Source of the DNA: Octopus vulgaris
Taxonomy: Eukaryota
DNA: 64,000 nt
Direction: 5' to 3'
Assembly: GCA_951406725.2 (NCBI GenBank)
Contig: OX597828.1
Span: forward strand, 30,752,001 to 30,816,000
Positions 4,818 to 55,720 of this stretch are shown piece after piece. The stretch's first letter is position 1. The number at the start of each line of letters is the position of its first letter. A program made the translations under genes and the position numbers. The notes beneath the pieces were generated by a model. It was not told the DNA's origin and searched no databases. It worked only from the letters and a program-made list of their open reading frames with translations.

Positions 4818-5000
4818 GGAGTAAACACATAAATGTGAAACAAGGTGGAAAAAAGAGTACTCAAATACCAGTGGTAGAGTAATATGGTTTATTTAAAGCA
4901 GCAGAAAATTCAACAAAATCTAGCAAAAACTGTCTGATGAACGGCAACGAGAAACTCAGAGTAACAGATTTTGTTGAATTTTCTGCTGCTTTAAATAAAG
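4815..5000. mobile_element. Inverted pair of PLE-type terminal fragments containing a hammerhead
   Basis: Perfect 34-bp inverted repeat 4888-4921/4966-4999 around an HHR core. Confidence 0.6.
4929..4962 (+). ncRNA. Minimal type-I hammerhead ribozyme motif
   Basis: ACTGT-CTGATGA(4934-4940)-ACG GCAA CGA-GAAA-CTC-AGAGT: intact core, GNRA-capped stem II with one mismatch, stem I with one mismatch. Confidence 0.6.
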
Positions 5001-24639: not shown

Positions 24640-25360
24640 TCTGTGGGAAGTTGTTGCTGGTGTATAGCGTCTTCACGTTTCTGTATCACCTGCGAGACTT
24701 TTGATGCATCTGCATAACCTATAATCGTGGTTTTTGTGCAGTCCCAGAACATTGCCTTGCAGAATATCCTCGCGTGTCATTCGAGTGGCCCCATTGGCTA
24801 CTACTGCTTGACTTCTATTTTCCAGAAAGTCATGCAGCCATCGTCTGAATATTCCGACTATGCCGAGATCATGCAGTTTGTGATATATCATTCCATTATT
24901 GACATTATCGAAAGCTTCCGCAAAGTAGAGATATATTACATCCACATTTGAGTGGTTAATCAGCTGTTTCAGCACCCAATCATAGTCTTGTAAGAGCTGA
25001 ATCAGGCAGCTTCTTCCTGGTCGGAAACCATGTTGTGTGTCAGTCAGCAAGTCATTTCCCTCAAGGAAGTTGATTAGTTTTCTTTTGAGTTTGCTGTTGT
25101 GCGAGTTCAAAGAGGTACGTTTGTAGCTTTTGGCCTCTGTTTTGCTATCACCATTATGGATGGGACATATTTTCCTTTTCTTCAGCTTGCTTGGAAGTTT
25201 GCCGGCTACAAGGAATCTCTGGAAGAGAGACTGCAGTGGTTTTTTTACGACTCGCTTACATGATTGTAGAAGGATTACTGGGAATCAATCGGGCGAGTAG
25301 CTGAGTTCGAATTCATCGCATGTGTAGACCTTATTACATCATCATTTACATTACTGTAAT
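24640..25360 (-). mobile_element. CR1/L2-type LINE RT remnant
   Basis: KPLQSLFQRFL..ICPIHNG.., LINFLEGNDLLTDTQHGFRPGRSCLIQLL..VDVIYLYFAEAFDNV..WLHDFLENRSQAVVANG. Confidence 0.9.
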
Positions 25361-52410: not shown

Positions 52411-52766
52411 AGCTTCCTATCTTTGTTCAAAACCTGCACCTTCCACAAAGGAAAAAATTGAATGATTAAATGTAGAAGAGAAATTATGTTTACATTTATA
52501 CATATGTATATACATTTTTTCGGCTGATACAGGTTAGAGTTTGTGCAAGTGCGATGCATACGTCCATTTTAGCGTGTGATTATAGACGTAATGTTTTGAG
52601 GTAGGAAGAACTAGTGTTAAAGGTGTGGTGGTTGTAAACCAACCTGTAATATTCTTACAAAATCATTCAGAGATATGCTTCATGGGTAAAATAACCAAAT
52701 GAACCCTTTAAATGAACATTACAAGGCATATACATACATGCATATACATATGCACATACATACATA

Positions 52767-52827
<61 letters not shown>

Positions 52828-52832
<5 letters not shown>

Positions 52833-53482
52833 TTATAATTAAGGGCTAAAGAAGGTTATTCTAAAGCCAATACACTGATTTATCCACTTATAATCCACTC
52901 GTTACAGGAAAATTGAACTGAAAGCGGGCAACTAACCTTTAGAAAATTTTAATTTCGTTATCTCTATATTGAATCAATTTCGGAATTAATCCCTATAAAG
53001 GATACATTCTTCTTCAGTAGAGCTTACGAGGAATATGTATAAAATACTCACTGTGATCATGGAAAAAGCAGCAGCTAAAAACACAACTACATTTAAGTAC
53101 ATCATTTATATCTAAAAATAAACATTCCTTGGTCAGTCTCAGAACAACGCGTTGACCTATCGCCGCTACATATTGTAATGGTTACCGCTCCCCTTGTAAC
53201 GAGCAGTGAGTTTACTACTAACAATATAGGATGAAGTCCCTTTCTCTACAGAAAAGGATTCCATCAAAAAGCGTGGCAGTATATTAAAAAAAACCTTTAC
53301 GGTTGAAGTATAAACATCTTATAATTAAGGGCTAAAGAAGGTTATTCTAAAGCCAATACACTGATTTATCCACTTATAATCCACTTGTTACAGGAAAACT
53401 GATCTGAAAGCCGGCAAATAACTTTTAGAAAATTTAAATTTCGTTATCTCTATATTGAATCAATTTCGGAATTAATCCTTAT
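52828..53482 (-). mobile_element. Head-to-tail 486-bp-period element with hammerhead (retrozyme-like or PLE pLTR tandem)
   Basis: Direct repeats 52828-52996 and 53314-53482, flanked on both sides by (TA)n; no ORF. Confidence 0.7.
52962..53022 (-). ncRNA. Type-I hammerhead ribozyme
   Basis: Minus strand CTCTA-CTGAAGA-[A GAAT gt ATCCTT tat AGGGAT ta ATTC C]-GAAA-TTG ATT CAA-TA|TAGAG: stems I, II, III and core all present; the 10.1-11.1 pair is A.C. Confidence 0.8.
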
Positions 53483-53759
53483 ATATATATATAGTATTGT
53501 TATAATGTTAATATTTTTTTTAATGCTATGTTTGTTCAAATGCGGTCACAGGAATTTATTTATGGCTAATTGTCTAACAGATTATATATCCACATACAGG
53601 TATAACGTTTTCACAACCACAGAGGAGTTTCTTTGTCACCATGTAAAGCAAACTAGGCATTTACGCAGCAAAGCTGTATTATTATTATGGAGATATACAC
53701 AGCCATAGACCTTTATGAATTAAATATTCATCACTGAAGAATTACACGTCGTTTGCTTT

Positions 53760-55230: not shown

Positions 55231-55720
<490 letters not shown>

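Follow-up and report, generated by a model that had tools for sequence, protein, structure and literature searches.

Within the 64,000-nt stretch of the Octopus vulgaris genome analyzed here (the window), the minus strand from 53315 to 52830 was found to hold a complete 486-bp unit, numbered below from q1 (53315) to q486 (52830). Its 3′ end coincides with the commoner of the two fixed ends of the family to which it belongs; the second, q100-103 (53213..53216, minus strand), is internal and unused in this copy. Directly upstream, head-to-tail on the same strand, lies a 5′-truncated copy comprising the last 165–168 nt of the unit (53483-53316, q319/324-486), which begins inside a hammerhead stem II (about 53479-53483) with TATA microhomology at its 5′ junction. 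The partial and full copies are 95% identical (8 differences in 168 nt), with a direct-repeat spacing of exactly 486 bp. The truncated copy retains only the 3′ half of a second hammerhead (53448..53479, minus strand), namely the 3′ strand of stem II, GAAA, stem III, the site 53453/53452 and the 3′ strand of stem I. Sequence inspection located a (TA)n target tract at the 3′ end of the element (52756..52828) and (TA)7 at its 5′ junction (53480..53493). The repeat spacing, the interruption within stem II, the (TA)n at both ends and the equivalent predicted cleavage sites at 53453/53452 and 52967/52966, all described in the initial annotation, were recovered. The unit has a GC content of 34% and contains no ORF of at least 100 aa. 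Since the window copy, of just 1.35 units, possesses only one complete ribozyme, it is probably a dead end.

Elsewhere in the window, a loose regular expression identified two more putative hammerhead-like motifs unrelated to the unit, at 4934 (plus strand) and 62414 (minus strand), the latter near (TTA)n arrays. A reverse transcriptase (RT) fragment at 24676-25284 (minus strand; RVT_1, E 1e-5, below the curated cut-off) showed no match to pieces of Penelope-like elements (PLEs), and a repeat at 55238-55400, extremely abundant in all four sequencing runs compared, is probably a SINE.

The hammerhead motif and its 10.1-11.1 pair

The type I hammerhead ribozyme (HHR) motif occupies 52962..53022 on the minus strand. 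Direct reading of 53022-52962 agreed with the initial annotation of a complete HHR having CUGAAGA (53017-53011), GAAA, an AUA triplet and three stems, and placed A10.1 at 53010 and C11.1 at 52982. Stem I (CUCUA/UAGAG) is lengthened by UCGU/ACGA across a 3 × 3 internal loop, and with this distal extension, identified from sequence and folding, the motif spans 52955..53029 (minus strand). Stem II consists of GAAU/AUUC, an internal loop and 5 further pairs, and the palindromic stem III (AUUG/CAAU around AUU) adjoins the AUA triplet. By sequence and the hammerhead consensus, self-cleavage is predicted at 52966..52967 (q349/350, minus strand).

An Rfam search of the window returned no family at gathering score and, at E ≤ 10, microsatellite-driven miRNA matches alone; the Rfam hammerhead models gave no match to the motif at E ≤ 10. 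The isolated 61-mer folded no better than its shuffles (z = −1.08), and in the 75-nt extended motif the hammerhead fold reached −13.1 kcal/mol versus −15.9 for the MFE structure, which keeps stems I and II. The core-intact motif with the stem III of this unit occurs 546 times genome-wide, against 0 for a reversed-pattern control, and C3, G5, A6, G8 and A9 of the core are 96–100% fixed within the family while the free position N7 varies (A78/C14/T4/G1); the window motif is therefore not a chance occurrence. A 21-mer from the 3′ half of the ribozyme has 363 exact matches in the genome (control, 0). Covariation was weak to modest, with two-sided change at 1 pair and a paired fraction that 53 of 500 shuffles reached. 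Conservation of 95% in the hammerhead versus 63–66% in the remainder is a circular comparison, the loci having been chosen by the motif.

While G10.1-C11.1 has been termed highly conserved (PMC4209133), position 10.1 was A in 91, C in 8 and G in none of 99 family segments. The suspicion raised in the initial annotation, that the A·C might impair this copy, hence did not stand as decay of the window copy: A10.1·C11.1 is the state of the family, and any impairment would belong to a subfamily that spread nonetheless. G10.1 is present in 282 of the 546 core-intact motifs, which form separate branches, and distant subfamilies keep G-C. It is suggestive only that these branches look older than A10.1: the median arm-versus-arm mismatch was 6.7% for the G class (n = 9) versus 3.2% for the A class (n = 30; p = 0.006), with p = 0.08 among pattern-sampled loci only and some noisy self-hits, and nearest-neighbor distances agreed (0.093 versus 0.017), the A class being oversampled.

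Insertion anatomy of the dispersed family

DNA searches of the octopus's own genome yielded 682–1320 first-look candidates, the best copies being 91–99% identical and spread over many chromosomes. Subfamilies range from 94% down to about 65–75% identity with units of 483–501 bp, and close family segments differ from their majority by 1.7% on average (n = 79 segments). As observed directly, the family is dispersed, protein-free and present in hundreds of copies.

The insertion anatomy was likewise read directly, from 124 loci comprising 90 best hits, 30 pattern hits on C1 and 4 hand-picked multimers; removal of 5 distant loci and of duplicates left 83 distinct insertions, a sampling biased to best hits (90/124). 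The 3′ ends fell at q486 in 46 insertions, at q100-105 in 34 and elsewhere in 3, so that 80 of the 83 end at one of two fixed sites 100 nt apart, and most of the distant G-class copies have these two ends as well. In 81 of 83, (TA)4 lay within 25 nt of the 3′ end. The circularly permuted ends anticipated in the initial annotation were accordingly borne out at the 5′ side, where ends are scattered, and contradicted at the 3′ side. An inverted 5′ arm was present in 45 of 83 insertions, its outer end adjoining (TA)n in 39; this arm overlaps the direct arm and, among the 36 cases open to classification, uses the opposite end class in 35. Direct arms measured 170–906 nt except for one that reached 1269 nt; a single insertion (1/83) was longer than two units, and long arrays, typical of published retrozymes, were absent from the 83 sampled. 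No poly(A) tail was found on family copies, and a flank match of at least 12 nt, as expected of target-site duplications, occurred in only 2 of 83, one of them convincing (L124). At this locus, at least 24 nt of flank is repeated on both sides of the insertion, possibly a long target-site duplication.

Relationship to Penelope-like elements

The hallmarks of PLEs, namely 5′ truncation, partial tandems, an inverted 5′ copy, a one-sided tail and a (TA)n target (PMC8557442), are all displayed by the family, and it is solely from this footprint, which the initial annotation had overlooked, that a Penelope-type partner enzyme is suggested. These traits, together with an HHR near the end, are those of the endonuclease-bearing (EN+) PLEs Neptune and Naiad (PMC8557442; PMC4209133). 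The octopus unit differs from these elements, as described there, in having no ORF, in that the repeat is the whole element, in its tail of 100 nt versus 30–40 nt, and in an HHR with long stems I–III, not of the minimal PLE type; it also has no homology to the two Neptune-type families examined.

That the unit is self-contained was observed directly: 72 of the 75 segments reaching q1 run on into q486 of their own unit, which identifies the unit as the whole element and not a pseudo-LTR (pLTR). PLE protein matches were confined to 5 distinct loci in 154 records with 1.5-kb flanks, contiguous at L117 alone, and the family's repeat is not continuous with an RT plus GIY-YIG ORF. The copies are thus not always pLTRs of an ORF-bearing PLE, in line with the absence of linked ORFs that the initial annotation proposed as a check. 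L117/L126 bring together a distant relative of the unit and an old endonuclease fragment of Neptune type. A pLTR reading of this junction was rejected, the relative being interpreted as a nested insertion joined by 4-nt microhomology: L127, a duplicate of this locus, has the upstream flank in common but an ordinary Neptune 3′ end, and the 3′ end of the other aligned Neptune copies is unrelated to the unit. L125/L126 and L127 (G000:C1, about 40 kb apart) represent an inverted duplicate of the Neptune fragment and its flank, one of which carries the nested G-class relative.

A protein search of the genome further revealed a young element whose RT and GIY-YIG frames are open; its 10 copies are 92–99% alike (L186-L197, e.g., G000:C2:99404500-99413500). 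It has an open 492-aa RT-EN frame and a microsatellite-rich 3′ region. The nearest clusters of its ORF are HTH_animal/RVT_1/GIY-YIG, and a CxxxxxxxC linker, YIG and CCHH motifs were read. Pfam and PDB sequence searches gave this ORF no name; the element is labeled Neptune on account of the linker motif, as described in PMC8557442. It carries a type I HHR of its own, in which 10.1-11.1 is U·U; the two ends of the element that abut TA, separated by about 74 nt, are used on opposite strands in the fold-back copies L190, L193 and L195. Sequence shared with the unit was found in 0 of 12 young PLE regions and at 1 of 30 old PLE loci, that one being a nested insertion, and both Neptune-type families, the old (1) and the young (2), were accordingly rejected as sequence partners; 150 of 17565 endonuclease candidates were scored in this search. 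The young element thus serves as a positive control for the footprint and is a plausible, unproven helper.

Template and origin of the insertions

Only 2 of 128 5′ ends fell at q346-354, around the predicted cut site, and of 16 loci chosen by 3′ end only, 12 read through this site and 0 stopped there. An accumulation of 5′ ends there was therefore rejected, and with it a linear cut monomer read a single time as the template. Within one insertion, the tandem arms were directly seen to share subfamily markers, with 189 concordant versus 33 discordant (106 versus 32 without L121), a pattern also expected from template jumping or a homogenized tandem master; between different loci, the corresponding numbers were 5826 and 75931. 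Sharing was lower between direct and inverted arms (76:38). A lineage that keeps both arms alike would have to pass a one-unit stage. Together with the lack of a pile-up, the shared markers favor a single-unit template that was likely read more than once, of which a circle, the template in the models of PMC4209133 and PMC7229834, would be the simplest form. The proposal in the initial annotation, a self-contained, HHR-bearing repeat family that is non-coding and was copied from a template of more than one unit, gains support from these markers and from the 72/75 segments that wrap onto their own unit.

Two loci, L015 and L035, have direct and inverted arms that differ at 4–5 subfamily markers, which suggests that a single event drew on two RNA templates. 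At L121 (G000:C3:155178800-155180100), a 2.6-unit array has many private variants common to its copies, including U4C in the core; its two full copies are identical over 472 sites and the partial one differs at 3 of 287, as might arise from a rolling read or a local duplication.

All 11 circular monomers folded were predicted to be more stable than their shuffles (z −2.3 to −6.9, 30 shuffles each), and their opposite strand also scored z −0.9 to −4.9. Assembled contigs from presumed-RNA runs cover the unit; strand, ends, level and circularity are not readable from contigs, and because a circle junction equals a tandem junction, they weigh neither for nor against a circle. A contig of a related but different unit, in the presumed-RNA runs X5 and X10 (two studies), matches over window 53135-53182 and 52934-52989, and its subfamily is absent among the sampled loci.

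Taken together, we consider it probable, at roughly two chances in three, that the family is a dispersed, protein-free 486-bp non-LTR retrozyme with a predicted hammerhead and that a Penelope-like enzyme, probably of Neptune type, reverse-transcribed it into TA microsatellites. The template would be a one-unit RNA, most likely circular, that was read more than once. We infer that source loci would be transcribed and cut to monomers by two whole same-strand ribozymes; these are present in 11 of the 83 sampled insertions, which could act as sources and which alone reach the at least two consecutive complete HHR units that Li et al. term active (bioRxiv 10.64898/2026.07.22.740005), the window copy having one. 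A host ligase would close the monomers, and a borrowed RT/GIY-YIG protein would nick (TA)n and prime at q486 or q100-103, both of which end in a TA-compatible dinucleotide. The RT would circle the unit through the cut site and stop at random, leaving 0.3–2.6 units; the inverted arm, in roughly one event of two, would come from priming by the opposite target strand at the alternative site. In vitro cleavage has been reported for only 1 of 9 Xenopus retrozymes (PMC7229834; bioRxiv 10.64898/2026.07.22.740005).

The same PLE-mobilized, non-autonomous element might instead spread without a circle, the A·C ribozyme being weak or vestigial in this subfamily and the tandem arms arising from uncut linear tandem transcripts or from end-to-end RT jumping on one linear RNA. 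The non-canonical pair in all family segments, the short arrays, the U4C core change in all three L121 copies and the crossing of the cut site by arms in 78 of 83 insertions, a selection-biased count, would suit such a route. We nonetheless regard it as rather unlikely, given that N7 differs between subfamilies whereas the core positions remain fixed, and that an axolotl retrozyme with U·U at 10.1-11.1 still cleaves, if weakly, and forms circles (PMC7229834; bioRxiv 10.64898/2026.07.22.740005). Linear tandems would moreover be expected to shorten with each 5′-truncated generation, and markers common to both arms would be unexpected without a one-unit stage.

It is very improbable that the unit is a pLTR or the 3′ end of an ORF-bearing PLE and its copies truncated remains. 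An ancestral pLTR origin stays likely, as vertebrate retrozymes were derived from pLTRs in bioRxiv 10.64898/2026.07.22.740005, and one distant relative (L117/L126) adjoins a Neptune endonuclease fragment; against this stand the wrapping onto the own unit, the scarcity of contiguous PLE protein matches and the ordinary Neptune end of L127 and the other aligned copies. We give as little credence to a satellite or minisatellite whose spread and duplication took place as DNA, or to a SINE mobilized by a conventional LINE. The identity of the L121 full copies is compatible with local duplication, but the end statistics largely refute these readings: the copies are dispersed, end at fixed 3′ sites, are truncated at random on the 5′ side and have inverted arms that overlap the direct one, while poly(A) tails are missing and flank matches rare. 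The Dolichopoda pDo500 HHR satellite (PMC2837043) also has a unit of about 500 bp with an HHR more conserved than the rest, but it is described as a satellite array of about 5% of its genome, whereas the octopus family is dispersed.

Returning to the retrozyme reading, one type I HHR per unit, a short non-coding head-to-tail unit devoid of LTR, PBS, PPT and ORF, and a stable, self-paired circular monomer, as modeled, would place the family among retrozymes. Metazoan non-LTR retrozymes (PMC7229834; bioRxiv 10.64898/2026.07.22.740005) share the low-GC unit, the structured monomer and the presence of PLEs in the same genome. The unit is longer than the 170–400 nt of tested retrozyme circRNAs, yet inside the 51–972 bp range of Li et al. 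Unlike the metazoan retrozymes as reported there, the octopus family, known here from DNA, occurs mostly as dispersed copies of 0.3–1.9 units rather than arrays and has a non-canonical 10.1-11.1 pair; its two fixed TA-primed ends and inverted arms are not described in the available text of these two sources. A literature search found no cephalopod retrozyme, although supplements or repeat libraries may hold the family, and the main text of the octopus repeat annotation PMC13282606, as available, makes no mention of "ribozyme" or "hammerhead".

Non-LTR retrozymes and their proposed PLE dependence are already published (PMC7229834; bioRxiv 10.64898/2026.07.22.740005); the octopus family adds to this a Penelope footprint, quantified on an element that lacks an ORF, in support of the as yet unproven model of PLE mobilization. 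We tentatively raise the possibility, well short of even odds, that the replacement of G10.1-C11.1 by A·C and C·C in younger subfamilies, and the U·U carried by the young Neptune-type element, reflect a benefit of slowed cleavage, which would leave the circle closed for long enough to be copied. The circle would present two fixed priming sites, 100 nt from each other and each serving one target strand, and these would sometimes lie on different RNA molecules (L015, L035). If this were true, the family would be a genomic record of a Penelope RT making tandem and inverted insertions from a ribozyme-made circle. With its naturally occurring G-C, C·C and A·C versions of a single ribozyme, the family offers material for asking whether weaker cleavage favors spread.
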